Shown piece by piece: positions 22,748 to 61,153 of a stretch of DNA of 64,000 nucleotides. The DNA is from Desulfobacterales bacterium. GTDB taxonomy: Bacteria; Desulfobacterota; Desulfobulbia; Desulfobulbales; JAGXFP01. The stretch is from the NCBI GenBank assembly GCA_024637225.1, contig JAGXFP010000071.1, forward strand, positions 48,784-112,783, read 5' to 3'. The notes beneath the pieces are model-generated. The model made no database searches. It was not told the origin of the DNA and worked only from the letters and a program-made list of their open reading frames with translations. Positions within the stretch are counted from its first letter, which is position 1. Each line of letters starts with the position of its first letter. Position numbers and translations under genes: made by a program.

Positions 22748-24274
<1,527 letters not shown>

Positions 24275-24291
24275 CAGGAGGGTGAGCTCTG

Positions 24292-25167: not shown

Positions 25168-25266
25168 CGAATTCCCCAAATTCGGGATGAGTCAAGCAGA
25201 ATAATTTTCAGGTGCCGGCCGCTTGCAGGTGAACCTGGATCAGCAAATAAAGCTTAGGAGGCTTGA

Positions 25267-26691
<1,425 letters not shown>

Positions 26692-44916: not shown

Positions 44917-45406
44917 GGATTTTCCTCACGTATTTTGAGTTGCCGGCGGAGCAACTTTGTGCCGGCCTGAAATTTTCAATCGGGGAGCAAAAAATAAATA
45001 TACTAAATCGACCCTGATTTTTAAACGGCGAAAAAGAAAATATGAAAGAAAAGGAAGGGTAGGACGGCGCTCCATGATGAATAAAAAATAAAAAGAGATG
45101 GTAAGATATTAATATGCAGTAATAGTAGCCAGTTCTTTTGCATAAATACGACGTTAGCTGTAATGAAATCGTACAGTAAGGCATCTTTTGGCCATGTTTT
45201 TGTGATATCATGTAAAAATATGATAGATTTCGTTTAATTAAAGAAGACATTTCGTGTTTAAATATGATATAGTGTAGAAGGTTCAGATGTATATTAAAAC
45301 TAATTGAATAACTGTACTAAAATCTGACACCTATTCAAAAGAAGAGACGTTTTTGCGTTTAGAGGTTTTGTGTATGGAAGGCGAAACAGAAAGGGAGGAA
45401 GTAAAG

Positions 45407-46195
45407 ATGAAAAGGATGCTGACTTTATCGATAGTTGTTCTGTTATCCGTGCTGGCGGCAAACGTCCAGGCTGCTAATCTCAGTTTCAATCCAGATGCGG
45501 TGGAACTTGCCGTTTCTCCGGGAGCGCATGCCATTGCAACCATTGAGGCCAAACTTGACGCAGCCGGGTTTTGCGCTGTCGATATGGAAATAGATTTAAC
45601 CGATAGCCAAGGGAATCTGCCCCACGGCTGGTTTCCCCCTGCGAGAGTCCGCTTGGGAACCAGAACTGGTGTTGCGTCCGCCCCGGTCGCCCTTAAGGTT
45701 AATGTCCCTGCCGATGCCCCGGCCGGTAAGTATTCGGCTCGTGTAAAACCGCGAATTGCGCGAGCCACCGAGTCGGTGGAGAGCGATGATATTATTCTGG
45801 TCGTCCAGGTCCTTGCCGACAATAAATGCGACGGTTCCTTGGCATTCGAAAATGTGAAAGTCGGGCCCGAAAATATCTGGGCTCCGACCGACAAGGAAGT
45901 CATGATTGAATTGTCCGGGAATATTGTTGTCTCCCTCGGTTGCGAGGTTAAAGGGGTTTACAGTATGGAAAGCAATAATGGTCCCGTCGCCGGTAACCTC
46001 GATATCGAGGACGGAAGTTTTGTCCGGCAGTTTCCCGTAATGGTGTCCAAAACAGGAAAAGACAAGGAGGGTACGGCCTATCAGGGGACTCTGTCCATTG
46101 AAGATGAAGCGGGCAACAAGGCAATTCAGGGATTTCTTGTCACGGTGGACCATGATCGGGGCAAAGATGGGGAGCGGAATCCTAAAAACAAATAA
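45407..46195 (+). CDS. orphan secreted protein (262 aa, beta-rich, Ig-like by composition)
   Basis: Strong RBS GGGAGGAAG 8 nt before the ATG at 45407. Signal peptide MKRMLTLSIVVLLSVLAANVQA. No motif recognised. Flanked by AT-rich DNA and a terminator. Confidence 0.65.
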   Translation: MKRMLTLSIVVLLSVLAANVQAANLSFNPDAVELAVSPGAHAIATIEAKLDAAGFCAVDMEIDLTDSQGNLPHGWFPPARVRLGTRTGVASAPVALKVNVPADAPAGKYSARVKPRIARATESVESDDIILVVQVLADNKCDGSLAFENVKVGPENIWAPTDKEVMIELSGNIVVSLGCEVKGVYSMESNNGPVAGNLDIEDGSFVRQFPVMVSKTGKDKEGTAYQGTLSIEDEAGNKAIQGFLVTVDHDRGKDGERNPKNK

Positions 46196-46243
46196 TCATG
46201 CGCGCATGGCATTGTTGACCCTGCCGGAAAAATAAAACATGAT

Positions 46244-46268
46244 GGGCCGCCTTTGGCGGCCCTTTTTG
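46244..46268 (+). terminator. rho-independent terminator
   Basis: GGGCCGCC-TTTG-GCGGCCC followed by TTTTT. Confidence 0.75.
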
Positions 46269-46312
46269 TTAATTGGTTCCGGGCCGTTCGGTGTAACGGG
46301 GCAAAGAGTGGT

Positions 46313-46423
46313 GGTGGCGCAAAAAAGTCAGAAAACCGTTCCTTCGACAGGCTCAGGATGAGCGGAATAACTTTATTGACTTAACGTTCGTGCCGAACCT
46401 GTCGAGGTGCGCTTCATCAAGGC
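46313..46423 (+). mobile_element. MITE-like repeat, family 3
   Basis: GGTGGCGCAAAAAAGTCAG terminus. The core aligns with the reverse complement of 10838-10960. Confidence 0.7.
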
Positions 46424-46567
46424 TGATGAGTTTGCAAAAAATGATTTGTCACGTCATTGCGAGGAGCAAAGCGACGAAGCAATCAAGTTCTTTCAATAAG
46501 TTAGATGTTCCTGGATTGTTTTGCTATGCTAGCGATGACAGGTTTTTTGACTTTTTGCGAACTCATC
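46424..46567 (+). mobile_element. MITE-like repeat, family 2 (144 bp)
   Basis: GATGAGTTTGCAAAAAATG...CTTTTTGCGAACTCATC terminal inverted repeats. It aligns with the reverse complement of 4384-4525. Confidence 0.8.
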
Positions 46568-46744
46568 AAAAAGTTCAGATAGTGCTAAAAGCAAAAGTGA
46601 GACTAAATAAATTTTATGTTTGACGTTATTTTATTAAAACATTTTATATTTGTTTCCGAGTGAGTATAAAGGGGTTTGTTGTAAGATAGTTGTAAGTTCC
46701 TGAATTAAGAAGGAAAATCCTTGAGTGGGATTTACAGGTGATCC

Positions 46745-46760
46745 CGGTATAAAGATTGCT
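46745..46760 (+). promoter_or_regulatory. candidate sigma54 (-24/-12) promoter upstream of the minor-pilin operon
   Basis: CGGTATAAAGATTGCT has GG and TTGC at exactly the consensus spacing of TGGCAC-N5-TTGCW. It lies 59 nt upstream of the ATG at 46819. Confidence 0.3.
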
Positions 46761-46818
46761 TAGGTAAATAGTAAGTGGGATCAGGACAATTTAAATTCCG
46801 CTCAATAACGGATAATCC

Positions 46819-47514
46819 ATGAAAATAAACAAATCGACAGCTAAATCGGCAAACCGGGGCAGCCGGGGCTTTTCCCTGGTCGAATTGATGATCGTGGTCG
46901 CGATTCTCGGCATCCTGGCGGTTGCGGTCGGGGTGAATATCAATTCTGCCAATAGCAGGCTGAAGTCCTTTGTCTTCAACACCAAGGCCCGCTTCAATCA
47001 GACCCGTTTCGAGGCTGTCAAGCGCAGCCGCGATGTCTATCTTGAGTTTCATCTAAACATGGACGAGACTGGTTATTCGTCGACGGCGGCGCCGGACAAC
47101 GGTTTTACGATCTGGGTGGATGAAAATGGCGATGGAAACTATACTTCATGGGACATCGGGACGGATGATGACAACAGCAACGGCGAATGTGATGCGGGCG
47201 AGGGCGATTGTGTCTTATCCGTGGTTACGTTTCCCGCTGATGGTCCGGAGATCTATCGTCCCACCATCACCGGCGGGCCGGGTACGGACGGTCCGGGGTC
47301 AATTACCATCAGCAGCGACGGGGTGACTGCACCTAGTAATCGTTTCATGTTCAGGCCCGACGGTGACTGTCCCAATAATGGTTCTGTCTATTTTTATTAC
47401 CCTTCCGGCGGCAAGGTCGCGTCCGGCCCCTGGGCGATCATCGTCAATACTGTGGGCCGGATCCGGGTTGACGAATGGCGCTCCACCAACGGCTGGCAGG
47501 GTGATTTGCCTTGA
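46819..47514 (+). CDS. GspH/FimT-like type IV minor pilin
   Basis: Prepilin N-terminal cleavage/methylation motif RG|FSLVELMIVVAILGILA with Glu at +5. First gene of the cluster. Confidence 0.75.
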   Translation: MKINKSTAKSANRGSRGFSLVELMIVVAILGILAVAVGVNINSANSRLKSFVFNTKARFNQTRFEAVKRSRDVYLEFHLNMDETGYSSTAAPDNGFTIWVDENGDGNYTSWDIGTDDDNSNGECDAGEGDCVLSVVTFPADGPEIYRPTITGGPGTDGPGSITISSDGVTAPSNRFMFRPDGDCPNNGSVYFYYPSGGKVASGPWAIIVNTVGRIRVDEWRSTNGWQGDLP

Positions 47515-47555
47515 TTTTCTTAAGATCGCCGGTCTGCCCGGGAAAAGGAAAAGAT

Positions 47556-48539
47556 ATGGATGCCGGAACTATAAAGAAAAACGGTGGTTATACCCTGGTC
47601 GAGGTGATGGTCGCCATGGCCATCTCCCTTATTGTTCTGGCCGGGGTTTATAAAGCGATTGTCGATGAGAGCGTCAATTTCGAAAAAGATGAGGCGGTCC
47701 TGGATATGCAAAACAACGCCCGGGTCGCCATCGCCAGGATTGCCCGGGATATCCGCCGGACCGGTTTTTTCGGCTGCGGCGGCGAGCTTAGCGCCAATAC
47801 GGTGGCAGGTTTCAGTTTTCCCCCGACTTCCATTGTCTTCGCCGGTGACGATTCCACTAATTCCGCCATCGATGACGGCACCGATTCGATTACCCTGCAA
47901 TTTCTGGCCGGGGATGTTCCGGTCGATGTTGATACCCCTACTACCCTGCCGTCCGCAACAGACCCCATTACCCTTTACAGGAAGGCCTTTAATAATGGTG
48001 ACACCCTCTATGTCACTGATTGTGAGGAATACGCCATTTTTGATAAGACAAATGGTACGGAGCCCTCCAAGACTGTGGAACATGGAGTCAACTTGGGTCG
48101 GGCCTACGGGACGCCTCTGCCGGCCCGGGTCTATCGTTTCGAAACGGCTGTCTATCGGGTTAACGGCGCTCAGCTAAGAGATATAAATGGGCAGGTGATC
48201 GCTAACAATATCGAGGACCTGCAGTTCGAGTTTATCACCGATTCCGATGATGACGGTGAGCTAAACGATGAAAACTGGGCCAATACCTTTACCAATGCCG
48301 CCGATGTCCGGGCCATCCGGATCTGGGTGCTGGCCATGAGCGATACGGCCTATTCCTATACCGATACCAATACCTACGACTACCCGAACAGCCCTTATCA
48401 CAGCGGGACAGCTCCGTACAATACCAACGGAACCGGCGGCTCGCCCGCCTCCCAGACCGGGTTGTCCGCGGATCTAAAACATCGCTACCGGTATCTGGCT
48501 TCTACTATTGTCTACCTGCGTAACGCCGCGATTGTCTGA
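47556..48539 (+). CDS. pilW: PilW-like type IV minor pilin
   Basis: G|YTLVEVMVAMAISLIVL prepilin motif. Size and position are typical of PilW. The ATG at 47556 has an AAAGGAAAAG RBS. Confidence 0.7.
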   Translation: MDAGTIKKNGGYTLVEVMVAMAISLIVLAGVYKAIVDESVNFEKDEAVLDMQNNARVAIARIARDIRRTGFFGCGGELSANTVAGFSFPPTSIVFAGDDSTNSAIDDGTDSITLQFLAGDVPVDVDTPTTLPSATDPITLYRKAFNNGDTLYVTDCEEYAIFDKTNGTEPSKTVEHGVNLGRAYGTPLPARVYRFETAVYRVNGAQLRDINGQVIANNIEDLQFEFITDSDDDGELNDENWANTFTNAADVRAIRIWVLAMSDTAYSYTDTNTYDYPNSPYHSGTAPYNTNGTGGSPASQTGLSADLKHRYRYLASTIVYLRNAAIV

Positions 48540-48557
48540 GTCTTACAGGAGAGTTTT

Positions 48558-48983
48558 ATGAGAAGATCGTTTCTGCGTAATGAAAAAGGTTTCACCATCC
48601 TGGAGGCGGTGTTCGCCGCCGGCATTCTGGCCTTTGCCATCCTCAGTTATACGATGCTGAAAACCTCAAGCCGTTACAGCCAGGGTTTTTCCAAGCAGCT
48701 TTCCCAGGGCATCCAGCTGTCGGACTCGCAGATGGATGACTTCGCCCGACGCGGTTACAACGACGGTCTACTGACGGCCACGGCCGGCACGGCTGTCCAC
48801 CTGTATTCGGAGCTGGGGGATGCACTGGAAATCGGAGATTTTACCATGGGTGGCGCCACCTGGACCGTCAAGGAAGGCTGCCCCGGGGAATTAAGCAAGC
48901 TTATCACGTTTACCGGCCAGTGGAATATGCAGGCCGATCCTCCTAAAGAATTTCAAACCACTAGGGTGCAGGTGAGGCCATGA
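48558..48983 (+). CDS. pilV: PilV-like type IV minor pilin
   Basis: KG|FTILEAVFAAGILAF prepilin motif, 141 aa, AGGAGAG RBS. Confidence 0.65.
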   Translation: MRRSFLRNEKGFTILEAVFAAGILAFAILSYTMLKTSSRYSQGFSKQLSQGIQLSDSQMDDFARRGYNDGLLTATAGTAVHLYSELGDALEIGDFTMGGATWTVKEGCPGELSKLITFTGQWNMQADPPKEFQTTRVQVRP

Positions 48984-49585
48984 GAGGAACGAGAACAGTC
49001 GAATTGACGTCTTTGAATCAGCGGGGAATGGCGCTTGTTTCCGCCCTGCTGATGCTGGTGGTCCTTTCGCTGATGGCAATCGCTTTGAGCATGGACAGCT
49101 CGATGAATGTGCGGATTGCCGGATATGAGCGCCTCAAGGCCCGCTCCTTCGGGTTTGCCGAATCGGGCCTGATGGCCTCCACCGATCTGCTGGAAGATAA
49201 TATCCATGAGGCAGGCTGGGATGAGGCGCTCCCCTTTGAATACCCCAATCTCAGCTCCCTTTATACCGGCGATTCCGATGGGAATAAGATCGATATTGTC
49301 GGCAGCAGCGGGGTTTTTTATCTGGAGGCTAACCCCGGAGATTGTGGCGAGGGTGATCCGGTCATGGAAATGAGGGGCGATATCGAAGCCGATGTCGTTG
49401 TACAGCGGTTGATCGCCAAGGTCGCCACTGGCGGCGCCATGCAGGTGGCCGCCGGCTACGAAGGGGTCGGCAAGAGCCTTGGCGCCGGCGGCGCCCATAT
49501 TCTCTACAATATCCGCGCCGTCGGTATGGAAGCGAATGATACGGCTACGGAGCTGGCCATGCATTATCGGGTGGTAACGAATTAG
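48980..49585 (+). CDS. pilX: PilX-like pilus assembly protein
   Basis: N-terminus RGMALVSALLMLVVLSLMAIAL is the PilX_N-type hydrophobic segment and lacks Glu5. ATGA overlap with the preceding gene. Confidence 0.6.
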   Translation: MRGTRTVELTSLNQRGMALVSALLMLVVLSLMAIALSMDSSMNVRIAGYERLKARSFGFAESGLMASTDLLEDNIHEAGWDEALPFEYPNLSSLYTGDSDGNKIDIVGSSGVFYLEANPGDCGEGDPVMEMRGDIEADVVVQRLIAKVATGGAMQVAAGYEGVGKSLGAGGAHILYNIRAVGMEANDTATELAMHYRVVTN

Positions 49586-49660
49586 CCCCCGTTTTTTCAG
49601 GAATAGCATGGATCGGCAAGCTGATTCGGAGAACATCCGGGTCTTGGAGATCAGTTATAT

Positions 49661-52600
49661 ATGGAGCAAGGTAATGCCATGAAGGGGATGATCGGAAGAG
49701 AAGCCTGGAAGCTCGTGATTTTTGCAATTTTTCTGGGATTGCTGCCGGCTCTCAACGTCGGCGCGGTTAGGGCTGCCGGCGAGACCATGTCTGACTATAC
49801 GAAACTGCCGGCCTTTCTTGAAACCGGCTTAAAACCCAACCTGCTGCTGTTGATTGATAATTCGGCCAGCATGTACGATCCGGCCTATCTGGATCCGGTT
49901 GTTGAAGAACTGGATGCTCAAGGCGACCCCACCGGTAAGACATTATCCGGCGGGATCGATTTTTGTTTTGCCGATGATTACGACAATGCCGTGGCCTATG
50001 CCGGCTATTTCAGTCCGCTGGCGGAAATCTGGTATAGATATGTCGATTCCCCGTTCTGCTCCAATGACACTTACGCCAATGAGTCCGATTGTACGGCTAA
50101 TTCGGGAACATGGAATGATGCCGACGACCAGTTTATCCAGCTATCGAAGAGCGAAGCTGAAACTTTTTGTTCGGACGAAACCGGCATCGAATATGCCAGC
50201 GACGACCTGTGCATCACCGTTAACTCCGGAACAGACCCCGATACGGTGACGGCTTTTGCCGCCAAGGGCAGATTCCTGAACTGGCTGGCCGCCTCCAAGT
50301 TCGATGTCGAAAAGGAGATCCTCAGCGGCGGTAAATATCATCAAACCAATAACGAACTGATTATGGAAACCCGGGGCTGCATGGGCAAAAGGTTTGTCAA
50401 GTCTGAGGAGGTCTACCTCAACGGCGATTCCACCACCACCCCATATTATTCCACCTTTGCGATCAGGCCGCCCGATGACGGCTCAGACGGGACCGATGAG
50501 ATCACCGATGATCAGGCCTACAACGGCTCTTCGCACAACACCAGGATCGAGATATACAAAGTCAGTTTGACCGGGTTCGATGCCGATAGCTGTAATACCG
50601 TCATCTCGGAGTTCACCGAATCGCGGCCGGAGCTCGGCAGCATAACCTCGGTAATCGATACCTGTCTGGGCCCGGAGACCCCGGAGGAATCCGTGGTCTT
50701 GAACCACGTAACCCAGGAGTGCTGGTACTATAATGTCTTTGGTGTGTTTCAGTCGGGTGAGGGCTCGGTTACTTCGCTGAAGGGCAAATGCGAGGATATA
50801 TATAACGCCAGTTCCGGAGACAAACCGCCGCCCGACGATTACCAGAGTCCCGCCGAACTGTCGGCCGGCGAGCTGTGTTACGGTGAATACGATTCATCCC
50901 ATTCAGCAGGGGGCGAGCCTTGGGGGTCGGGCTACATGGGTCAGTGCTGGGAGGAGCAGTATGCTAGGTGGGACGATAATCCGTGCGTAGGCGACGGGAC
51001 CAATGTCTCGGCGGCCACCGCCATCCAGGACGCGAACGAATTCTGGTATTACTGCGCCGATAACGACAGCGATAGCGTGGATGAATATATCAGGTGCGGT
51101 AAAAACCAGCGACATTCCTGTCAAGCCAGCGACTGGACCGTATGGCAAACTCCCGTTTCAGCCGATCCATCCGGTGTGCCCGCGGAAGTATACTGGACCA
51201 ATGACGAGGTGGTAGCCGGCAGTGAGACCACCGCCAAGCAGGGCAACACTTGCGCGCAATATGCTCTGGAATCCTTTTGCACGGAACTGGATCAGCAAAC
51301 CACGGTTGATCCCTCCGATGGTATAAAGGGCTCAAACAGCGGAGCTAAAATCCCGGCGACCTTGGTGGATTACGCGGTGAGCGGCCAACTTGGCGACCCC
51401 CTGAAAACGCTGAAAGGCAGAGTGGTTCCGCCGCAAGAGCCGGTGGGCTTGATCAATGAATTCAAATACAACCTCCGCATGGGAGCGATGGTCTTTAACG
51501 ACGGCACCGCCACGGAGTGCGCCTCGGTGGAGGACCGTCCCGGCAGCGGGCGTTATGTGGCTTCTCTTTATGGTTGTATGGAAGTCGATCATACCAACGG
51601 CGCAATCCTGAGTAATCCTCCCAAAAAAGACGGGGGGCGGATAATTGCATATATCGATGAAGGTGACGGTCACATCGACTCACTGGTGGAGGCGATTAAC
51701 GATGTCAATGCCGATACCTGGACTCCGACCGCCGAGGCGATGTACAACGCGATCGGCTACTTTACCCAGGACAGCACCAATGACCTCCGGATCAACCCGC
51801 CGACCGGGGACCCTGCCCTGGGGTTTGGCGGCGATTTTATCCGCGATAGCGATTGGGGACTTAATTTCGGGGCCTCCGATATGAACGCCTGGGCGATCGG
51901 AACTCCCTACGCGAAAGGCGATATTGTCTATACGGCCGCCAATAAAATGGGCTATACCAAGCTTTATCGGGCCAAAAACGCCGGGACCTCCGCCTATTGC
52001 GCCGATTGCAGCTATATCGAGGAGGACAGCGGGGTGAAATGGATGCCTTATGACCCGGTCCAGGCCGGCTGCCAGAGCAACAATGTTCTTCTGATCACCG
52101 ACGGCGCCTCGACGGCCGATATCCATGGGAATGGTATCGCCTCCGGGATGACCGACTTCGTCACCGCGGGCAACGACGACAGCGATTTGGCCGCCACCTG
52201 GATTGCGACCGAGACCGAGCCGACAGATTACGAATGCATGAGCTGGATTGACAAAACGGGGGCGAGCAATACCGACGGCGTATTTGATTTTGGAGAACCG
52301 ATTGTCCATAAAAATTACGGCAGCACCCTGCTCGACGATCTGACTTACTATGGGCATAGCGGCTCGACAATTTATTCCCATTCGGCTATCGGCGGCGTCG
52401 ACAAGGAGCCGATCAAGACCCATATCGTCGCGGCCGGCACCCTGCGGAATGACGCTCCCGGTCTGGAATGTAATTCCCGGACCATTCTCAACTCGGCGGC
52501 CGACAACGGCGGCACCACTCTGGTTGAGGCCGCCGACCCCACCGACCTTGAAGAGAAATTGCGGGATGTTTTCGAGGCCATCGGCGGCGAGGTTTCGTCC

Positions 52601-55600
52601 GGTTCGGCCGCCTCGGTCATCTCCCACTCTCGTAGCGGTGACGGCGCGATTTATCAGGCGATCTTCTACCCCAAGCAGGTCGACGCCCAGATGAACGAGG
52701 TCGACTGGACTGGCGATGTCCATGCCTTGTGGCTTGACGCCCACGGCAATATCCGCGAGGATTGCGGCGCCACTGACTGTACGGGAACGACCGGCGATAA
52801 AACAATGAACCCCCGGGTTGACCGAATAGTGACGTTTTACACGGATGCCACCGGCTCCGCCATGGCAAGGTTGTTCAGCGATGCGAATGGCGACGGCAGT
52901 TACGATAATTCCGCCTCCTGTTCCGACCCGACCTATACCAATGAAGACGATTGCGAGGACAATTTCAAGGTCTGGAGCTACGCGGACAATCCTGATTTTG
53001 TCGATGATGGTGTCTTGTTGAAGGATTTGCTTTATATCTGGAGCGCCGCCGACTGGCTGGCCGACGCCTCGCCTGGCCAGAGAGCTTATGACAGCGTCGC
53101 TTCGGAGCGCTATATCTTCACGATGCTGCCTGACGCCAGCGGCAATCCAGACATGGTGGCTTTTACCACGAGCGCCCTTGGTCCGCCGAGTGGAGCGTTT
53201 ACAGCCGATGAGTATGACGGTTACTTAAACGCCTTCTCCTCGCTGGATTCCGATATAAACCGCACCGCTGACGGGATCGTCAACTATGTCCGGGGGCTGG
53301 ACCAGACCGGTTACCGGTCGAGGCAGATCGACTGGACCCCCTCGACCGGTCTGGAGACCGTTAAGCTGGGCGATATCATTCATTCCACCCCGACCCTGGT
53401 CGGATCGCCGGCGGAAAACTACGATGTAATCTATGGCGATCCCACCTATCGGAACTTTCGGAAAAAATATCAGAACCGGCGGGCGGTGATCTACGCCGGC
53501 GGCAACGACGGTGGCATGCACGCCTTTAACGGCGGCTATTACGACCGGCACAACAAGCGGTTTCTTAAGGCCCCGCCGGTGCCCGGGTCCGACCCGGTTG
53601 TCTACGAGACCCAATATGATCTGGCCGCCGAGTTATGGATGTATGTGCCGAAAAATATTTTACCGCATCTCCGCTGGCTGACCGATCATAATTATGGTGA
53701 CGGCCATGTCTATTATGTTGACGGCAAGCCCTATATCTTCGATGGCAAGATTTTCTCGGAAGAAGCGGCATGTACTGATGCCGATTTGACGAATGATGAC
53801 CAGTGTCTCCATCCCGGCGGCTGGGGCACGGTCCTGGTCGGCGGCATGCGCTTCGGCGGCGGTAATATCGGGGTGGACATTGATGGTGCCGGTGATGACG
53901 AGATCATTCGCTCCGCCTATTTTATTCTGGACATCACCAATCCCGAATATCCGCCGGTGGTCCTGGCGGAATTCACCGATGAGGACTTGGGATATACCAT
54001 CGGGTCGCCCACCGCCATTCCGATGTTGCGCTGCGATAAGAACACCGTCGCCGGCCTGGGCGACTGCAATACCAAGAACTGGCCGATGGACTGGTATCTG
54101 GCCTTCGGCTCCGGCCCCCACAGCGATGATCCGGTTCCGGCCGGCCCCCAGGAAGGGATGCGGGGGGTGAGCGACCAAAACGCCAAGCTTTATGTAATGA
54201 GGTTGGGCGGCACCAATACCAGCGGGCTGACCCCGGCCTCTCTCGGCCATCTCGGCAGCGGCCAGGTCGCCAGCGGCGTTGTCTCCTTCAGCAACCAGCC
54301 GATTCTGGTGAGTGTCAATGGCGTAACTTCCGGGCAATGCAGTGATCCTGCCCATACCACCGAGGCTGACTGTTTGGGCGCCGCGGAAATATGGATTAGC
54401 GATCCCTTTACACCCGGAGCCTGCAGTGATTTCACTTCGGCCGACGAGGCGGCTTGCCTGGCCGCCGGTAAGGTGTGGAACCCGGTTTCCTGTAAGGGTA
54501 TTCCCGGCGTTTGGGATACCTATTCCTCTTTTAACTGCGTGGGTTCCGGCCCGGGCCGCTATTGGGATCACTGGTGGGGATTGAATACTGGAAGGGGATG
54601 TTACGAGAGGACTTCCACCGAGGAGTGTCTGGCAAGGTCAGGTTGGTGGGTTCCGGGAAATAACGCTTCGGGGATATGCAGCGACACCCGGGATACGAGT
54701 AAAAGTGAGTGCTTGCGTTTTTACGGCACTTGGAAAAATACCTATCCGAATTCCTTTTTCGGCGATTTTATCGCGGTCGATTATGATCTGGACTTCAAGA
54801 CCGATACGCTTTATTTCGGTTCGGTCCTGGATACTCGGAGCTGGGCCGGCCATGAGGCCCACGGCGGCGCTTTGCATCGGCTGGTGAGCGGCGATAACCC
54901 CGACCCGGCCACCTGGAGCTTTAATCTGTTTTCCAACGTCGGCAGTCCGGTTGCCGCCGCCCCCTCGGTGGCCTCCGACGGCCAGCGGGCCTGGGTCTAT
55001 TTCGGCACCGGACGCTATTACTCCGCCGAGGAGGACAAGGCGATTGCCACCCCGTTCCAGCCCACCAGGTTTCTGGGGCTTAAGGAGCGCTACGGCGACG
55101 ACGGCAATATGGACCTTACCCTGCCGAACGGCGGCAATCTGGTCGATGTTACCGCGACCTGGGTCAAGCCGGGCGGGGAGCTCGTTTCACCTCCACCTTC
55201 AATCACGGGCGTTGGCACGTTCGATGAGTTGAACGTTAAAATCTCGGAACTGGATACCGACACGACGAATGACGACAAGGATATATATCACGGCTGGAAA
55301 ATCAATCTGGCCGGCCGGGAGCGGGTTATCGGCCAACCCGCCATTCTGGGGGATATCGTGACCTTCACCTCGTATATTCCATCGGATGACCCCTGTGAGC
55401 CCGATGGTACCAGTTACCTGTGGGCGGTATATTACCGGACCGGCACCGCTTACCATAAATCGGTTATCGGCACGAAGGTCAGGACTGAAGGCACCGAGGT
55501 CTTGAGAAAGGTCGGCCTCGGCAGCGGACTTTCCACCACCCCCAATATCCATGCCGGCGCCGGCGATGGTACCAAGGCCTTTGTCCAGAGCAGTACCGGC

Positions 55601-55696
55601 GCTATCCTGAGTATCGAACAGACCAATCCCGGCGTGGTAAAAAGCGGGATGAGATCGTGGCGGGAGCTGAGCGGAAAAGGTAGTAGCTGCAATTGA
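49661..55696 (+). CDS. pilY1: giant PilY1/PilC-family type IV pilus tip adhesin (2011 aa) with split vWA motifs and Cys-rich insertions
   Basis: Signal peptide. vWA/MIDAS elements are LLLLIDNSASM (aa 61-71), NLRMGAMVFND, TWTPTAEAM and VLLITDGAST (aa 809-818). PilY1 propeller signatures are LGDIIHSTPTLVGSP, IYAGGNDGGMHAFN, WGTVLVGGMRFGG, YFILDITNP and DYDLDFKTDTLYFG. Confidence 0.85.
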   Translation: MEQGNAMKGMIGREAWKLVIFAIFLGLLPALNVGAVRAAGETMSDYTKLPAFLETGLKPNLLLLIDNSASMYDPAYLDPVVEELDAQGDPTGKTLSGGIDFCFADDYDNAVAYAGYFSPLAEIWYRYVDSPFCSNDTYANESDCTANSGTWNDADDQFIQLSKSEAETFCSDETGIEYASDDLCITVNSGTDPDTVTAFAAKGRFLNWLAASKFDVEKEILSGGKYHQTNNELIMETRGCMGKRFVKSEEVYLNGDSTTTPYYSTFAIRPPDDGSDGTDEITDDQAYNGSSHNTRIEIYKVSLTGFDADSCNTVISEFTESRPELGSITSVIDTCLGPETPEESVVLNHVTQECWYYNVFGVFQSGEGSVTSLKGKCEDIYNASSGDKPPPDDYQSPAELSAGELCYGEYDSSHSAGGEPWGSGYMGQCWEEQYARWDDNPCVGDGTNVSAATAIQDANEFWYYCADNDSDSVDEYIRCGKNQRHSCQASDWTVWQTPVSADPSGVPAEVYWTNDEVVAGSETTAKQGNTCAQYALESFCTELDQQTTVDPSDGIKGSNSGAKIPATLVDYAVSGQLGDPLKTLKGRVVPPQEPVGLINEFKYNLRMGAMVFNDGTATECASVEDRPGSGRYVASLYGCMEVDHTNGAILSNPPKKDGGRIIAYIDEGDGHIDSLVEAINDVNADTWTPTAEAMYNAIGYFTQDSTNDLRINPPTGDPALGFGGDFIRDSDWGLNFGASDMNAWAIGTPYAKGDIVYTAANKMGYTKLYRAKNAGTSAYCADCSYIEEDSGVKWMPYDPVQAGCQSNNVLLITDGASTADIHGNGIASGMTDFVTAGNDDSDLAATWIATETEPTDYECMSWIDKTGASNTDGVFDFGEPIVHKNYGSTLLDDLTYYGHSGSTIYSHSAIGGVDKEPIKTHIVAAGTLRNDAPGLECNSRTILNSAADNGGTTLVEAADPTDLEEKLRDVFEAIGGEVSSGSAASVISHSRSGDGAIYQAIFYPKQVDAQMNEVDWTGDVHALWLDAHGNIREDCGATDCTGTTGDKTMNPRVDRIVTFYTDATGSAMARLFSDANGDGSYDNSASCSDPTYTNEDDCEDNFKVWSYADNPDFVDDGVLLKDLLYIWSAADWLADASPGQRAYDSVASERYIFTMLPDASGNPDMVAFTTSALGPPSGAFTADEYDGYLNAFSSLDSDINRTADGIVNYVRGLDQTGYRSRQIDWTPSTGLETVKLGDIIHSTPTLVGSPAENYDVIYGDPTYRNFRKKYQNRRAVIYAGGNDGGMHAFNGGYYDRHNKRFLKAPPVPGSDPVVYETQYDLAAELWMYVPKNILPHLRWLTDHNYGDGHVYYVDGKPYIFDGKIFSEEAACTDADLTNDDQCLHPGGWGTVLVGGMRFGGGNIGVDIDGAGDDEIIRSAYFILDITNPEYPPVVLAEFTDEDLGYTIGSPTAIPMLRCDKNTVAGLGDCNTKNWPMDWYLAFGSGPHSDDPVPAGPQEGMRGVSDQNAKLYVMRLGGTNTSGLTPASLGHLGSGQVASGVVSFSNQPILVSVNGVTSGQCSDPAHTTEADCLGAAEIWISDPFTPGACSDFTSADEAACLAAGKVWNPVSCKGIPGVWDTYSSFNCVGSGPGRYWDHWWGLNTGRGCYERTSTEECLARSGWWVPGNNASGICSDTRDTSKSECLRFYGTWKNTYPNSFFGDFIAVDYDLDFKTDTLYFGSVLDTRSWAGHEAHGGALHRLVSGDNPDPATWSFNLFSNVGSPVAAAPSVASDGQRAWVYFGTGRYYSAEEDKAIATPFQPTRFLGLKERYGDDGNMDLTLPNGGNLVDVTATWVKPGGELVSPPPSITGVGTFDELNVKISELDTDTTNDDKDIYHGWKINLAGRERVIGQPAILGDIVTFTSYIPSDDPCEPDGTSYLWAVYYRTGTAYHKSVIGTKVRTEGTEVLRKVGLGSGLSTTPNIHAGAGDGTKAFVQSSTGAILSIEQTNPGVVKSGMRSWRELSGKGSSCN

Positions 55697-55809
55697 TGAT
55701 TGCCGGTCCTGAAAAAAACAGGGCACGGGCCGGGAGCGCACGGATACATGAATAACTCAGGTTGAGGACATGTGCCAGGGAACTGAAGATTAAAGGTAGT
55801 TAAAACTGA

Positions 55810-56268
55810 ATGGGACGTAAGATGACAAGGATGTTGAAAGCAGGATCAGGAAGCGGGGGCTTCAGTCTGATCGAGGTGATGGTCGTGATCGCTATTATCG
55901 GGATTCTGTCGGCGGTGGCGGTGCCGGCCTATTTCAATCATGTCATGCGGAACCGCCAGACCGACGCGGTTTACGAGTTGATGGCGATCAATGCCTCCCA
56001 GGAGAGGTATTTCGCCGAAAAGGGCACCTATGCCGCTGTTTTTGGAGACCTGGATCATTATGACGGCGCCGGCACCGATTATACCGGCAAATATTTTACC
56101 TATAATCTGTCCGGCGGCATGATTACCGCCACCGCCGATCTTGACGGTGATCCGGCCACTCAAACGATTTGGCGGGTAAGGGTCGGGGATATCAACGATA
56201 AGCCGAGCCAGGTCAGTTCCAACGAGGAATTCGGCTGGTCTGCCCTGGCGGCGGTGCTGGCCGATTAG
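55810..56268 (+). CDS. type IVa pilin (PilE/PilA-like)
   Basis: GG|FSLIEVMVVIAIIGILSAVAVPAYFNHVMRNRQ. The exact start is ambiguous (ATGs at 55810, 55822 and 55831). Confidence 0.85.
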   Translation: MGRKMTRMLKAGSGSGGFSLIEVMVVIAIIGILSAVAVPAYFNHVMRNRQTDAVYELMAINASQERYFAEKGTYAAVFGDLDHYDGAGTDYTGKYFTYNLSGGMITATADLDGDPATQTIWRVRVGDINDKPSQVSSNEEFGWSALAAVLAD

Positions 56269-56328
56269 GAGATTTACCGGTTTCGGCAAAGCGATGCCGG
56301 AATCATCTTGACTTGATGGAGATGGAAG

Positions 56329-56787
56329 ATGTCTTTTGTGAAAAGGATCTTGTTGTTCGCCGGGACGGTGGTTTTGTCCCAGCTGTTTTGTATGTACGCC
56401 GCCGCTGCTCAAACTCCGCTGAAAAGAGCGGATGTTTTCATTAATCAAAAATACAGCATGCCGATAGAGTTCGATAAAAGACTGCTGGACAGGAATTTTC
56501 GGCAAAAGATCGACAGGCAGCAGCTTAAAGAATTGCTCCGGCCCCGGGAGGTTTCCTATGTGCCTTTCCAGATCAGCACCACGGCCGGCCCCTTTGCCGT
56601 TTCGGTTCACACCGAGGTAGTTAGGGATGGCGGCGCCATCAATATTGACGATCTGCCCGTGCCGTGTTCGGCCTATGTCTTTTTTTACTCTTCTTCGGAG
56701 GGAAGACCTCCGATCGCGATGAAAATTGTGGTTAATAATGTCGCCGATGAGGCCACGGTAAGATGGAGCCGGGCGGCCCCGAAATAA
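56329..56787 (+). CDS. orphan secreted protein (152 aa)
   Basis: GGAGATGG RBS. Signal peptide ILLFAGTVVLSQLFCMYAAAAQ. No recognised motif. It lies between the pilin and the ATPase gene. Confidence 0.55.
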   Translation: MSFVKRILLFAGTVVLSQLFCMYAAAAQTPLKRADVFINQKYSMPIEFDKRLLDRNFRQKIDRQQLKELLRPREVSYVPFQISTTAGPFAVSVHTEVVRDGGAINIDDLPVPCSAYVFFYSSSEGRPPIAMKIVVNNVADEATVRWSRAAPK

Positions 56788-56884
56788 TTAAGCCTGGATT
56801 TTATTTGAGTAAGCTGGATGGCTATCGGCTGATGATAAGAGCATCTTTTTGTTGTGCAAAATTATATTCGTTTAACAGTGTCCG

Positions 56885-58675
56885 ATGAGCTATATCAATA
56901 ACTCCACATACCTTTTCGACCTGCTGGTCCGGGAGGAGCTGATCTCGGAAGAGCAGAAGGAGATGCTTGCCCGAAAGGGTTCCCATCAGCGCCAGCTCCT
57001 GCTCCGGGAGCGGCGCAAGAAGAGCGGTTCGACCCGGCGGGTCCGGGAGCCGGATCTGGTCGAGGTTATTGTCTCCCTCCACCTGGAGATTCCCGGCGAC
57101 AAACATCATCCCCTGACCGAAGAGATGATCATGCGGACCGTGGCCGGGGACCACGATTTGCCGTTCAAGAAGCTCGACCCCCTGGAACTCGATCTGGAGG
57201 TGGTCACCAGGACCATTCCCAAGAATTACGCGGTCAAGCATCTGATGATCCCGTTCGCCCTTAAAAACGGGGTGCACGAGATCGCCATGTACGATCCGGT
57301 CAAGCTCGAGGTCCTGGAGGAAATCGAGCGGGCCAACAAGATCACCATCAAGCCCTATATCAGCACCCGGACCGATATCAGCCGGATGCTGGCCGAGTTT
57401 TTCGGCTTCCAGAGCTCAATTTCGGCGGCCGAGGTCCATCTGGCCAAGCCGCTGGTCGATCTCGGCAACCTCGAGCAGTACGTCAAGATCAATCGGGCCG
57501 GCGAGATCACCTCTTCCGACCATCATATCACCGCCGCGGTCGATCATTTTTTCACCTACGCCTTCGATCAGCGGGCCAGCGACATCCATATCGAGCCGAA
57601 ACGGGAAAAGAGCCTGATCCGGCTGCGGATCGACGGGGTGCTCCACACCATCTACACCCTGCCGATGGCGGTCCATTCGGCCATCGTTTCCCGACTGAAG
57701 ACCCTGGCCCGGATGAACATCGCCGAGCGCCGGCGCCCCCAGGACGGCCGGATCAAGGTGGATCACGAGGATCAGGAGGCCGAGATCCGGGTCTCCACCG
57801 TGCCGGTGGCCTTCGGCGAGAAGGTGGTGATGCGGATTCTCGATTCGGCGGTGATGTTCCAGGATGTCGAGACCCTGGGGTTCAGCGCCCGCGATCTCGA
57901 AATCTACCGGGGCTTCATGAAGAGCCCCCACGGCATCGTCCTGGTCACCGGCCCGACCGGCAGCGGTAAATCGACCACCCTCTACTCAACCTTAAAGCAG
58001 ATCTCCACTTCCGAAAACAATGTGACCACCGTCGAAGATCCGATCGAGATGATTCACGAGGAGTTCAACCAGATCGCGGTCCAGAACCAGATCGACGTGA
58101 CCTTTTCGACGATCCTCCGCAATATCCTCCGCCAGGACCCGGATATCATCATGATCGGCGAGATCCGGGATCTGGATACGGCGGTCAATGCGATCCAGGC
58201 CGCCCTCACCGGCCATCTGGTTTTTTCGACTCTGCACACCAACGATGCGGTCTCCTCGATCAGCCGGCTTACCGATCTGGGCACCCAGCCCTTTCTGATC
58301 GGCTCGACTCTGTTGGGGGCCATGGCCCAGCGCCTGGTCCGGACCATCTGCCCGGACTGCCGGCAGCCCGTCAAGGTCGATGCCGGCCTGCTGCGCAATT
58401 TCGGCTTTCCCGTCGAGGGCGAGGGCAAGATCGAACTCCAGGCCGGGAAGGGCTGCCGGCAATGCCGGCAAACCGGCTTTCTGGGGCGGTCGGGCGTTTT
58501 CGAGATATTCCCCGTTTCCGATGCGATCAATCGGATGATCTGCCAGGGGGAGTCCGAAGCGGAGATCCGCGAGCAGGCGATCAAGGAAGGGATGACCACC
58601 CTTAAGGAAGATGCCTGGCGGAAGGTTAAAAAGGGGATCACCACCTACGAGGAGGCGGCCCGGGTCACCGGGTAA
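56885..58675 (+). CDS. pilB: GspE/PilB-family type IV pilus assembly ATPase
   Basis: T2SSE N-terminal domain, Walker A VTGPTGSGKSTTLY, Walker B IMIGEIRD, and the tetracysteine Zn motif CPDC...CRQC. Confidence 0.9.
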   Translation: MSYINNSTYLFDLLVREELISEEQKEMLARKGSHQRQLLLRERRKKSGSTRRVREPDLVEVIVSLHLEIPGDKHHPLTEEMIMRTVAGDHDLPFKKLDPLELDLEVVTRTIPKNYAVKHLMIPFALKNGVHEIAMYDPVKLEVLEEIERANKITIKPYISTRTDISRMLAEFFGFQSSISAAEVHLAKPLVDLGNLEQYVKINRAGEITSSDHHITAAVDHFFTYAFDQRASDIHIEPKREKSLIRLRIDGVLHTIYTLPMAVHSAIVSRLKTLARMNIAERRRPQDGRIKVDHEDQEAEIRVSTVPVAFGEKVVMRILDSAVMFQDVETLGFSARDLEIYRGFMKSPHGIVLVTGPTGSGKSTTLYSTLKQISTSENNVTTVEDPIEMIHEEFNQIAVQNQIDVTFSTILRNILRQDPDIIMIGEIRDLDTAVNAIQAALTGHLVFSTLHTNDAVSSISRLTDLGTQPFLIGSTLLGAMAQRLVRTICPDCRQPVKVDAGLLRNFGFPVEGEGKIELQAGKGCRQCRQTGFLGRSGVFEIFPVSDAINRMICQGESEAEIREQAIKEGMTTLKEDAWRKVKKGITTYEEAARVTG

Positions 58676-58830
58676 TCGCTTACAGGGCACCACATCTTGC
58701 GGCGATCGGTCCGGCTTACTTACTGAAGTACGCATCGCCGTCCCGCTTGCCGCAACCTGCGGCACCCCGTAATCGCTTACCGGATGGAAGAATGGCAGAA
58801 CCTGGGCGGCTTATCCAGTGATCGGGTAAG
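58672..58830 (+). repeat. about 160-bp palindromic repeat, copy 1
   Basis: GTAATCGCTTACAGGGCACCACATCTTGCGGCGATCG...GTACGCATCGCCGTCCCGCTTGCCGCAACCTGCGGCACCCCGTAATCGCTTACC...GGGCGGCTTATCC. It starts inside the pilB stop codon and matches 58943-59105. Confidence 0.85.
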
Positions 58831-58909
58831 ATTCGAGTTGTCCCGGGCAGTCTCTCTTTGCCAAAAAGCGCGATACTGGTTATAGTAATAAACAAGCAGT
58901 TGACAGCGT

Positions 58910-58942
58910 CCCTTGCTTTCGTCCGAAAGGCAGGGGTTTTTT
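58910..58942 (+). terminator. hairpin plus T-run (likely terminator of the pilus operon)
   Basis: CCCTTGCTTTCG-TC-CGAAAGGCAGGGG followed by TTTTTT. It lies between the two 160-bp repeats. Confidence 0.6.
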
Positions 58943-59105
58943 GTAAGCGATCACAGGGCACCACATTTTGCGGCGATCGACCCGGCTCACGTACAAAATG
59001 TACGCATCGCCGTCCCGCTTGCCGCAATCTGCGGCACCCTGTAAACGCTTACCGACCGGGAGATTGGCCAATTATGGGCGGCTTATCCCCGTAATCGGTT
59101 ACGCA
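58943..59105 (+). repeat. about 160-bp palindromic repeat, copy 2
   Basis: Direct repeat of 58672-58830 with scattered substitutions. It ends 38 nt before the smpB start. Confidence 0.85.
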
Positions 59106-59143: not shown

Positions 59144-59596
59144 GTGTCCGGCAAGGTAGCGGCAAAAAACAAGAAGGCCTATCACGATTATTTCATCGAT
59201 GACACTCTGGAGGCCGGCATGGTCTTGAAGGGCTCCGAGGTGAAGTCGATCCGGGCCGGCAAGGTCAATCTGAAGGACGGCTTTGCCAAGGTCAAAAACG
59301 GCGAGGTCTTCCTCTATAATGTCCATATTTCGCCATACAGTCATGCCAGCTACAACGCGCCCGAGGCCGAGCGGGTCAGGAAACTGCTGCTTCATCGCCG
59401 GGAGATCAAAAAACTGATCGGCAAGATTCAGGAAAAAGGATTTGCCCTGATCCCCTTGAAGATATACTTTATAAGCAGCGGCAAGGCCAAGATCGAATTG
59501 GGCCTGGGCCGCGGCAAGCGTCTCTACGACAAGCGGGCTACGCTGAAGAAGAAGGAAAGCGACCGCGAAATGGAGCGAGCCTTAAGAAAGGAATAA
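59144..59596 (+). CDS. smpB: SsrA-binding protein
   Basis: [17 protein letters not shown], and a basic C-terminal tail. GTG start with an AGGAGA RBS. Confidence 0.95.
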
Positions 59597-59660: not shown

Positions 59661-60019
59661 GGGGGCGAAACGGATTCGACGGGGACATATAAGCTTGGGC
59701 TGCGTGCCGAGTTCTGATAACTCGTTAAACTGTCAGATATAAACATAATCGCTGACGATTATGCACATGCTGTAGCAGCGTAAATTGCTACCGTTCATCA
59801 TAACCCCTTCCCGTGGGGTTTTGACTGAACGTCGCTAATACGGGATAGCCTGCCGGCTGCGCTTGCCGGCCGATGGGCGAAACCTCAGCAAGATAGTGTT
59901 GGAAATTCTAGTCCTGGAGATGCTCCGACACGATAAATAACTTTTTGACAGGACTATGCATGTAGACGCCTACAGGGGAGTGTTTCCGGACGCGGGTTCG
60001 ACTCCCGCCGCCTCCACCA
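59661..60019 (+). ncRNA. ssrA: tmRNA (SsrA), tag reading frame ...ADDYAHAVAA*
   Basis: 5' GGGGGCGAAACGGATTCGACGGGG and 3' GGACGCGGGTTCGACTCCCGCCGCCTCCACCA. The acceptor stem has a G3:U pair. The tag ORF GCT GAC GAT TAT GCA CAT GCT GTA GCA GCG TAA is at 59751-59783. Confidence 0.95.
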
Positions 60020-60247: not shown

Positions 60248-61153
60248 CTATTTTTCGCCGTGACATGTTTCACAACCAGTTGCAGCTGTAGAATCACCAC
60301 TTTGATTATCAGAATAAGTAAAGCGCAGCAGGTCCGGCTCCCCGGAACCATGAGGGCGGTGGCATGAAATGCACATTACCATATCGGTGTCGAGACCCGT
60401 GGTCCCCATGGGTGTTGTCTGACTTCCGGTAAAGGTGGCGGCGGGGTATTCATTGGAAAGACTTACATCTGTCGGATGCCTGATCCATGCGTTGGGAGTT
60501 GGATCCTGCCCGGCGCCTTGATTGCTGGGGCCGGAACCGTGAAAAAGGCCATGGCATGTAGCACAAAAGAGATTGAGTGAAGCGGCATCGTAGATGTTTT
60601 GTCCCGCTGCGATTTCAAAATTGGCATCTCCGGTCCCTTTTACATAGACCGAGTCACGGCCAAGCATCCGATAGGAACTTGTCGCATCACCCAGGCGGGG
60701 GGCGTCGGCGGTCATATGTCCGATAGTTCTGTCGTGACAGTTTTCACAGGTTATTTGTGAACTGGCATCGTACGTCGTGGCTGTACCCGGAATCGTGGTG
60801 AATTGGGGATCAAGAGGCAAGATGAGGTCGGAAACATTATGTTGCATTCCATTGGAACTCGAGGTGGAAAAGTACCCGCCGGCAATCGGGTTTCCGCTGT
60901 CAATGACCTGTGGTGCCTTGGGGGAGCCATCGGCTCGGCCGGTCGTAAGGTTGTTTGATGAATACGCGTGACAGCCGATGCAGTCAAATTTCTTTAAAAG
61001 GTTTGGAAGGGGGCCGTCGGTGGCCACCGGGTTGCCATCTTGGCTGTCATGCATGGTGTGGCATTCGGCGCATGGGCCGGTCAGACCCTGGTGGGCGGTG
61101 GCTAGAGCCGGAATTGACAAAAACGCGGCCAGCACAAAAAATCGCTTTATCAT
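60248..61153 (-). CDS. secreted hexahaem c-type cytochrome (301 aa)
   Basis: Six CXXCH motifs (CAECH, CIGCH, CENCH, CATCH, CISCH, CETCH). Signal peptide MIKRFFVLAAFLSIPALATA. GGGGGG RBS. The C-terminal CISCHRPHGS...CETCH resembles the doubled-CXXCH arrangement. Confidence 0.85.
   Translation of the reverse strand: MIKRFFVLAAFLSIPALATAHQGLTGPCAECHTMHDSQDGNPVATDGPLPNLLKKFDCIGCHAYSSNNLTTGRADGSPKAPQVIDSGNPIAGGYFSTSSSNGMQHNVSDLILPLDPQFTTIPGTATTYDASSQITCENCHDRTIGHMTADAPRLGDATSSYRMLGRDSVYVKGTGDANFEIAAGQNIYDAASLNLFCATCHGLFHGSGPSNQGAGQDPTPNAWIRHPTDVSLSNEYPAATFTGSQTTPMGTTGLDTDMVMCISCHRPHGSGEPDLLRFTYSDNQSGDSTAATGCETCHGEK

Follow-up and report, generated by a model that had tools for sequence, protein, structure and literature searches.

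A type IV pilus priming operon and an adjoining TfpB-like ATPase gene in a Desulfobulbales contig

Minor-pilin/PilY1 operons of type IVa pili (T4aP) are well known. In Pseudomonas aeruginosa, the operon fimU-pilV-pilW-pilX-pilY1-pilY2-pilE depends on AlgR and lies away from pilBCD and pilMNOPQ, and such separate minor-pilin clusters are the rule both in Pseudomonas and in the Myxococcota (PMC13190605, PMC7541494). Acinetobacter baylyi possesses, in TfpB, a second extension motor, a PilB-like ATPase of a clade apart from PilB whose gene is not syntenic with pilC or pilD (Ellison et al. 2021, PMC8213720), and this motor has been hypothesized to initiate the extension that PilB then sustains (PMC8213720, PMC11656802). 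Here, we analyze a 64-kb stretch of DNA from contig JAGXFP010000071.1 (the window, in what follows), in which a minor-pilin/PilY1 operon lies beside the gene of a TfpB-like ATPase. The closest homologs come from metagenome-assembled genomes (MAGs) of the Desulfurivibrionaceae and other Desulfobulbales, and on these the host would be a Desulfurivibrionaceae-type bacterium. We consider it fairly probable that a vertically inherited T4aP priming or tip operon and a TfpB-family ATPase act here on the same pilus.

Three other described systems are pertinent. In Desulfurivibrio alkaliphilus AHT2, a member of the same family, the type IV pilus genes occupy seven loci; pilB (DA_837), pilC (DA_872), pilT (DA_1080), pilMNOP, pilD and pilQ are each separate, and the seventh locus consists of fimT-pilW-pilV-pilX-pilY1 with pilA beside it (PMC12545173). 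In the minor-pilin/PilY1 clusters 1-3 of Myxococcus xanthus, the N-terminal domain of PilY1 varies, its propeller is conserved and small accessory proteins may be added, TfcP of cluster 1 being an example (PMC13190605; Treuner-Lange et al. 2020, PMC7541494). The mannose-sensitive hemagglutinin (MSHA) locus of Vibrio cholerae encodes an MshEN-type extension ATPase, MshE, together with minor pilins.

The eight genes at 46819-58675 of the window all lie on the plus strand, their junctions extending from an overlap of 4 nt to a spacing of 113 nt, and Pfam and NCBIfam searches of the translated open reading frames (ORFs) give the order fimT-pilW-pilV-pilX-pilY1-pilE-orf152-ATPase (Table 1). Every ORF of 130 aa or more across 44.9-59.7 kb was considered and assigned; the remaining genes of the window are housekeeping genes (ATP synthase, recA, alaS, mutS, metG, holB and purL). 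Much of this had been seen in an earlier note on this DNA. The five prepilin or PilX-type N-termini that it reported (genes starting at 46819, 47556, 48558, 48980 and 55810) are visible in the translations, and profile searches with Pfam, NCBIfam and a PilY1 family profile classify the ORFs as pilins and PilY1, the PilV-like one with a score below the cut-off. A PilY1 homolog, an orphan secreted ORF and a PilB/GspE-class ATPase do accompany them, co-oriented and with short or overlapping junctions, and the domains as well as the gene order support its comparison with the Pseudomonas fimU-pilVWXY1Y2E priming or tip operon. The AT-rich DNA with two miniature inverted-repeat transposable elements (MITEs) on the 5' side, the twin repeats on the 3' side, and the adjoining smpB-ssrA pair and multiheme cytochrome gene were all found in place, and pilC, pilD, pilMNOPQ and pilT were indeed not found in the 64-kb window. 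The note was right about the class of the ATPase, but had missed its TfpB-like nature, that is, that it is not a canonical PilB.

Class-III leaders of the form G|F/Y-[ST]-L/I-[VIL]-E are visible in the FimT, PilW, PilV-like and PilE-like ORFs, and three of these four exceed the N_methyl cut-off, the PilV-like ORF falling below it (17.2 bits, cut-off 21.2). The label PilV-like was given to the latter because of its position, size, leader motif and conserved orthologs; the D. alkaliphilus genes are annotated in the same order. PilX, whose gene overlaps pilV by 4 nt, has a weak NCBIfam match to the GspK N-terminus, and an alternative TTG start of pilW at 47511 would overlap fimT. The DNA that encodes the prepilin N-termini emerges as a repeat family of its own. 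Judged by its domains and order, the predicted operon is a real and largely ordinary T4aP priming/tip-complex operon, its giant PilY1 included.

As in P. aeruginosa, a GspH-like pilin gene comes first, followed by those of PilW, PilV and PilX and by pilY1, with pilE the last of the pilin genes; the priming operon is likewise remote from pilBCD and pilMNOPQ, and PilY1 has a vWA N-terminus and a C-terminal propeller, the Ca-binding property of which is represented here by a Ca-loop-like motif only. In contrast to P. aeruginosa, pilW precedes pilV, PilY1 is ~850 aa longer and contains Cys-rich inserts, no pilY2 separates pilY1 from pilE, the unrelated secreted orf152 and then the TfpB-like ATPase follow pilE, and the promoter resembles one of the sigma-54 type, not one that depends on AlgR. 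The pil4 locus of D. alkaliphilus (DA_2309-2314; PMC12545173) has the same order from fimT to pilY1 and the same scattering of the other pilus genes; there, however, pilA lies divergently upstream, whereas here orf280 is upstream and a PilE-like pilin downstream, PilY1 has 1572 aa as against 2011 aa, and the published table lists nothing 3' of pilY1. The variable N-terminal domain and conserved propeller of PilY1 and the presence of a small accessory protein are shared with M. xanthus; unlike here, no ATPase is reported in its clusters (PMC13190605, PMC7541494), and orf152 has neither a heme motif nor similarity to TfcP-type cytochromes. With MSHA, the locus shares an MshEN-type extension ATPase encoded with minor pilins, but the secretin, platform and MshI-N genes are missing here, and inspection of the ATPase N-terminus by eye does not reveal the two-fold c-di-GMP-binding motif of MshE.

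The full-length PilY1 has no Pfam match and no sequence match in the PDB; residues 1236-1451 reach 24.3 bits with PF05567, which is below the cut-off of 28.1. Its 97 homologs in Desulfobulbales, Geobacter/Geomonas and Nitrospirota include many that are named PilY1 or carry PF05567/PF28373, and a profile of 24 homologs matches the C-terminal domain of P. aeruginosa PilY1 (3HX6) with E=5.6e-49. The protein starts with a signal peptide and has a MIDAS motif of the vWA type (DNSAS at 66-70 ... TDG at 813); the beta-propeller occupies approximately residues 1236-1990. Within it, DYDLDFKTD (1707-1715) fits the Ca-loop pattern Dx[DN]xDxxxD and sits, by inspection, in the profile region aligned with the P. 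aeruginosa loop DNNSDGVAD, so that it is a putative Ca site; a further DxNxDxxxD site, DANGDGSYD, is found at residue 1074. The homolog names, the profile match to 3HX6 and the vWA/MIDAS and Ca-loop-like motifs therefore identify the predicted 2011-aa protein as a bona fide PilY1 that is very large and decorated. The decoration includes Cys-rich inserts with nine C-x8-10-C-x5-7-W motifs, typically CSDxxxTxExxC.....W, at positions 133, 479, 1087, 1371, 1458, 1560, 1588, 1647 and 1673, some of them within the propeller region; these motifs gave no family matches. A CBM5/12-like stretch suspected at ~745-800 was dropped, as it had no Pfam support.

It is the ATPase that distinguishes this locus, since a TfpB-like motor stands beside the priming operon in place of a canonical PilB. 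The protein has a Walker A motif (GPTGSGKST), a Walker B motif (DPDIIMIGEIRD), a His box and a tetracysteine motif. Among the NCBIfam models, TfpB (633.5 bits) leads GspE (516) and PilB (506) by ~117-127 bits; the database label of the clade is only "GspE/PulE family", and in a comparison with PDB sequences the ATPase is equidistant (~355-375 bits) from Geobacter PilB, Myxococcus PilB, Thermus PilF and Vibrio GspE. Neighbor-joining trees (434-460 ungapped columns, 100 bootstraps) unite it in a 100/100 clade with Thermodesulfobacteriota homologs, a Geobacter orphan, a Myxococcota orphan and gammaproteobacterial TfpB, to the exclusion of G. sulfurreducens PilB, M. xanthus PilB, T. thermophilus PilF, E. 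coli GspE and E. coli HofB. The window ATPase is 48-51% identical to TfpB and 38-42% identical to PilB, PilF, GspE and HofB. No T2SSF or peptidase A24 gene (pilC/pilD) was found near it in the 64-kb window, nor any PilC-sized neighbor at the inspected loci of its homologs. Trees and profiles thus support a place for the predicted motor in the wider TfpB clade, a paralog clade apart from PilB, PilF, GspE and HofB, and not among the canonical PilB proteins, although it stays under the equivalog cut-off.

A genome scan with the ATPase gave at least 80 homologous loci, many of them on short contigs, in which PilY1-like neighbors were scored by tblastn. Among the matches listed, a PilY1-like gene is near the ATPase in 10 of 35 nongammaproteobacterial loci as against 0 of 45 gamma- and betaproteobacterial ones, and the gammaproteobacterial homologs are orphans without a pilC neighbor; the ATPase gene of the window, unlike these tfpB orphans, adjoins minor-pilin/PilY1 genes. 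The ATPase-smpB pair is conserved across the Desulfobulbales, and in Desulfurivibrio sp. and a widespread relative (loci L089 and L090) the order is fimT-pilW-pilV-pilX-pilY1-orf119-ATPase-smpB. Minor pilins and/or a PilY1-like gene also adjoin the ATPase homolog in L009, L010, L017, L026 and L038 (divergent in the last), and weak PilY1-like matches occur in L018, L022, L023, L024 and L030; in several Desulfobacteraceae loci such weakly PilY1-like proteins are giants encoded 5' of the ATPase. Because smpB is not beside the ATPase in L017, where a RecN-like ORF (recognized by eye) lies downstream, nor in L026, the linkage with the pilin genes is independent of smpB. Because it recurs in several Thermodesulfobacteriota lineages, a functional coupling of the ATPase with the minor-pilin/PilY1 genes is probable on comparative grounds. 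No report of a TfpB-like ATPase beside minor-pilin/PilY1 genes was found in the literature searched, and the association of the TfpB family with a priming operon is apparently unreported.

The earlier note had taken the cluster to be in an accessory context and possibly horizontally acquired, and relatives argue otherwise on both counts. The arrangement purL, fimT-pilW-pilV-pilX-pilY1-pilE-(orf152)-ATPase, smpB-ssrA is common to a Thermodesulfobacteriota MAG (L001), a Desulfurivibrionaceae MAG (L003, the contig of which ends before smpB) and a contig of the Joint Genome Institute (L006); L001 and L006 retain, in addition, part of the metG-PSP1-holB-HD block upstream. Identity in the three is 81-94% for PurL and 75-96% for the ATPase, but 43-51% for PilY1. 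Because order and flanks are the same while PilY1 is far more diverged than PurL and the ATPase, the cluster is, on this evidence, a stable chromosomal locus with a predicted fast-evolving surface adhesin, vertically inherited and not recently acquired. The comparison of synteny proposed in the note has thus found the cluster conserved together with its flanks, which largely removes the accessory reading. The alternative in its full form, an acquired accessory module for an adhesive or contact-sensing pilus inserted beside smpB-ssrA, seems to us very improbable. It could appeal to the AT-rich DNA and MITE-like repeats upstream and the twin repeats downstream, to the atypical third-position GC content (GC3) of orf280, orf152 and the cytochrome gene, and to some Desulfobulbales families in which the minor-pilin block is missing beside the ATPase. 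Transfer-messenger RNA (tmRNA) genes are, moreover, classic integration sites of genomic islands; these, however, normally integrate on the far side of ssrA, whereas the cluster is 5' of smpB and it is 3' of ssrA that the gene content varies. Site and order are identical in three relatives in spite of a strongly diverged PilY1, the GC content of the cluster is native (56.3% vs. 57.1% for the window), none of the ORFs (130 aa or longer) between 44.9 and 59.7 kb is an integrase or transposase, and both twin repeats are on one side of the cluster, which they do not flank. The whole AT-rich spacer, with orf280 and the MITE-like elements, is kept in L003 at 80-92% nucleotide identity; because L003 has it, the spacer with its MITE-like repeats is older than the L003 split, as is one copy of the twin repeat, also present there. 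Since L001 and L006 likewise have AT-rich purL-fimT spacers (42-47% GC), this composition is a property of the regulatory spacer and not a transfer scar. The idea of an acquired accessory pilus can be dropped in favor of a normal core-genome example of a minor-pilin/PilY1 operon. Nor is the locus dedicated and self-contained, as the note had it, because platform, peptidase, alignment complex and secretin are absent from it.

If the operon functions according to the Pseudomonas/Myxococcus paradigm, a prepilin peptidase encoded elsewhere would cleave the leaders, and FimT, PilW, PilV, PilX and PilY1 would assemble on the inner-membrane platform as a primer that nucleates the polymerization of the major pilin, with PilE as the bridge between the two. 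An extension ATPase would drive this polymerization; by analogy with D. alkaliphilus, a canonical PilB is probably also supplied from another locus. The priming complex would end at the pilus tip, where the vWA-containing, Cys-rich and fast-evolving PilY1 would be an adhesin or contact sensor, and its Ca-loop could tune how extension is balanced against retraction. The TfpB-like motor would act on the same pilus, and of the steps at which it might do so initiation is the likeliest, as has been proposed for the TfpB of A. baylyi; a role at that particular step is nonetheless a possibility to which we give somewhat less than an even chance. Still more tentative is the general proposal that the TfpB-family ATPase of the Thermodesulfobacteriota and the minor-pilin/PilY1 complex form a single initiation module, in which this motor launches the primer and a PilB encoded elsewhere extends it. 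If it were true, it would lend independent comparative-genomic support to the two-motor (initiation vs. elongation) model from Acinetobacter, to which the characterization of TfpB has so far been confined, and it would directly link TfpB-type motors functionally to machines loaded with minor pilins and PilY1. The linkage yields a concrete prediction on why some bacteria carry two extension motors. Several sulfur- and metal-cycling Thermodesulfobacteriota keep a TfpB-like gene beside pilus-priming genes, and the family, with relatives that include the cable bacteria and Desulfurivibrio, is environmentally important; pili are discussed there in extracellular electron transfer and mineral attachment.

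A number of observations weigh against the view that the operon and the TfpB-family ATPase serve one and the same pilus. The ATPase fails the cut-off of the TfpB equivalog NF053534 (633.5 vs. 850 bits); with this model, deltaproteobacterial homologs score 512-672 bits (the lowest being a truncated copy) and gammaproteobacterial orphans 810-958, and two of the three gammaproteobacterial orphans tested exceed the cut-off (930 and 958 bits). The ATPase trees were made without MshE and A. baylyi TfpB, and the omission of MshE counts here. In L011-L016 (Desulfocapsaceae, Desulfobulbus and other Desulfobulbales MAGs), ATPase-smpB has housekeeping genes upstream and no pilins, so its adjacency to the pilin genes could be historical and not functional. 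The spacer 5' of the ATPase gene is 97 nt here and 125-391 nt in relatives, no conserved sequence or promoter was found in the aligned regions 5' of the gene, and its GC3 of 0.83 resembles that of purL and metG, as against 0.62-0.68 in the pilin genes; because of this GC3 and the long, unconserved spacer, separate transcription of the ATPase is plausible. Finally, PilC, PilD, PilMNOP, PilQ and PilT would by analogy be supplied from other loci, as they are in D. alkaliphilus; in a Desulfobulbaceae MAG, the minor-pilin/PilY1 block is accompanied by two PilT-like genes and by a two-component system. Much of this would be expected if the ATPase belonged with smpB as an old Desulfobulbales pair and were functionally independent of the pilin operon, whether as the general or sole extension motor or in the service of another type IV filament: the occurrence of the pair without pilin genes, the unconserved spacer of at least 97 nt and the core-like codon usage and GC3 of the ATPase gene all fit, and the tfpB without pilB reported for P. 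fluorescens A506 makes a sole motor of the TfpB type possible (PMC8213720). We nevertheless judge such independence unlikely, for the pilin linkage recurs where smpB is no neighbor (L017, L026 and the divergent L038), and its spread over separate orders and over 10 of the 35 nongammaproteobacterial loci among the matches listed is hard to obtain by chance. D. alkaliphilus has, besides, a separately annotated pilB, so that the family probably has a motor besides the TfpB-like one. A secretion role has been argued for the PilA-N/C pili of Geobacter, and one might suppose that a pseudopilus like that of a type II secretion system (T2SS), with GspH/I/J/K-like pseudopilins, a GspG-like PilE and a GspE-like ATPase, drives secretion here. 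The weak GspH and GspK matches of the minor pilins, the weak match of PilE to the GspG N-terminus, the 516 bits of the ATPase on the GspE model and the multiheme cytochrome gene nearby would suit such a system, yet it is most improbable: tip adhesins of the PilY1 kind, with a propeller, belong to T4aP and not to T2SS, all the Gsp scores are far under the cut-offs, 100/100 support sets the ATPase apart from E. coli GspE, GspC/D/F/L/M were not found in the window, and the cytochrome gene is on the opposite strand beyond ssrA, in a position not kept in relatives. A vertically inherited priming operon with a TfpB-family ATPase that acts on the same pilus thus stays the reading we prefer.

Table 1. 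Coordinates of the features of the locus (window positions) and of small ORFs at comparison loci
Feature	Position	Strand	Remarks
purL, 996 aa	41926..44916	-	Left-hand anchor; metG-PSP1-holB-HD-purL block
AT-rich purL-fimT spacer	44917..46818	+	43.8% GC; holds orf280 and two MITE-like repeats
orf280, secreted, 280 aa	45353-46195	+	Own terminator 46244-46262
MITE-like repeats	46341-46407 and 46424-46569	n/a	Further copies in the window: 10867-10934 and 4382-4514
Sigma-54-type promoter-like element cGGtataaagaTTGCt	46746..46762	+	57 nt 5' of fimT
FimT/FimU-type (GspH-like) minor pilin, 231 aa	46819..47514	+	N_methyl 34.7 bits; GspH PF12019 31.4 (cut-off 21); leader GFSLVE
PilW minor pilin, 327 aa	47556..48539	+	N_methyl 35.8 bits; PilW PF16074 34.7 (cut-off 26); leader GYTLVE
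PilV-like (GspI-position) minor pilin, 141 aa	48558..48983	+	Leader GFTILE; position, size, orthologs
PilX (GspK-like) minor pilin, 201 aa	48980..49585	+	PilX_N PF14341 36.3 bits (cut-off 25.5); PilX-type N-terminus
Giant PilY1 adhesin, 2011 aa	49661..55696	+	Homolog names; PF05567/PF28373; family profile vs. 3HX6
PilE-like pilin, 152 aa (mature 135 aa)	55810..56268	+	N_methyl 31.2 bits, ComP_DUS 30.5, both over cut-off; leader GFSLIE
orf152, small secreted protein, lineage-restricted	56329..56787	+	Signal peptide; one homolog cluster
TfpB-like extension-type ATPase, 596 aa	56885..58675	+	MshEN 58.9 bits; T2SSE 408.6 bits
ATPase-smpB spacer	58672..59098	+	Twin repeats around promoter-like box and intrinsic terminator
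smpB	59144-59596	+	SmpB Pfam match; with ssrA, right-hand anchor
ssrA/tmRNA	59661-60019	+	ARAGORN and Rfam
Cytochrome, six CxxCH motifs	60248-61267	-	GC3 0.52, atypical
MORN-repeat gene	61722-62840	+	3' of ssrA
Small ORFs of other loci	L089 9511-9870; L090 9512-9871; L026 9402-9776; L009 3241-3627; L038 2838-3398

Transcription of the operon probably starts at the predicted sigma-54-type promoter 5' of fimT. Its pattern, GG-N8-TTGCW, has 15 occurrences in the 128 kb of both strands; a motif of this type also precedes fimT in L003 (where it is identical), L001, L006 and L089, and in L090 genes for a sigma-54 activator and a sensor kinase lie directly 5' of the cluster. No sigma-54-like motif was found 5' of pilE, and because the PilE-like pilin gene thus has no promoter signal of its own and follows pilY1 after only 23 nt in L006, it is probably a member of the operon, as a minor pilin. 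The protein, which is 80% identical to its L003 counterpart, passes the sequence screen of Bray et al. (bioRxiv 10.1101/668343) for aromatic-dense e-pilins (at least 9.8% aromatics, gaps of 22 aa at most, and aromatics at 1, 24, 27, 50/51 and 32/57), with 13.3% aromatics, a maximal gap of 22 and F1, Y24, H27, Y50, F51 and Y57. The PilE copies of L001 and L003 keep these features, and that of L006 retains the key positions with a gap of 23; as this is a screen of sequence only, any conductivity or major-pilin status would be putative.

A single homolog cluster among 1.8 billion representatives was obtained for orf152, which has no match in Pfam or NCBIfam and an unusable AlphaFold2 (AF2) model (predicted local distance difference test score, pLDDT, of 48.7); the gene is present in L001 (51% identity) and absent from L003 and L006. 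In other lineages, too, pilY1 is followed by a small secreted ORF of 119-186 aa, which adjoins either the TfpB-like ATPase or its pilin block. No homology of these ORFs (orf119, orf124, orf128 and orf186) to orf152 or to one another was detectable, and the small ORFs after pilY1 may be positional analogs.

Of the elements upstream of fimT, orf280 has a low GC3 (0.53) and a weak choice-of-anchor-T match only; a 60%-identical copy occupies the same place in L003, and the gene is absent from L001 and L006. The MITE-like elements (46318-46569) have the inverted-repeat ends GCAAAAAAGTCAG...GACTTTTTGC and an internal core cattgcgaggagcaaagcgacgaagcaatc, and the predicted family appears to have been active in this lineage, because L003 carries a related element between its pilY1 and pilE (14390-14686 is listed for the family). 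On the opposite side, two direct repeats of ~155 nt (58672-58825 and 58943-59098; 83% identical) contain five copies of the motif GTAAnCGnTTAC, a 12-nt inverted repeat that occurs nowhere else in the window and would be expected 0.75 times by chance. The first of them is found in L003 at 92%, and contig L008, of the same strain, ends inside this first copy. The twin repeats bracket a unit (58858-58942) in which a promoter-like site with a -35/-10-like box (58858-58886) is followed within ~20-50 nt by a strong intrinsic terminator (58910-58936). The unit is conserved in L001 (19388-19514), L006 (17904-18023), L089 (11810-11931) and L090 (11810-11890), and Rfam gave no match in the twin repeats or the spacers; the unit could specify a very short RNA or a leader/attenuator of smpB.

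The adjacency of smpB and ssrA is kept in L001, L006, L089 and L090. Every relative examined differs in gene content 3' of ssrA, L001 having Fic and a giant TED/CarboxypepD_reg protein (20886-25997) and L006 an oxidoreductase and ABC-binding proteins (19146-25291), and it is on this side that the locus truly varies. The six-heme cytochrome gene of the window lies on this side, 4 kb from the aromatic-rich pilE. Another assembly (GCA_018822855.1; L004/L005, 172-7741) has pilW-pilV-pilX-pilY1 followed by genes for PilZ-domain and MORN-repeat proteins, without pilE, ATPase or smpB, and its PilY1 is 45% identical to that of the window.

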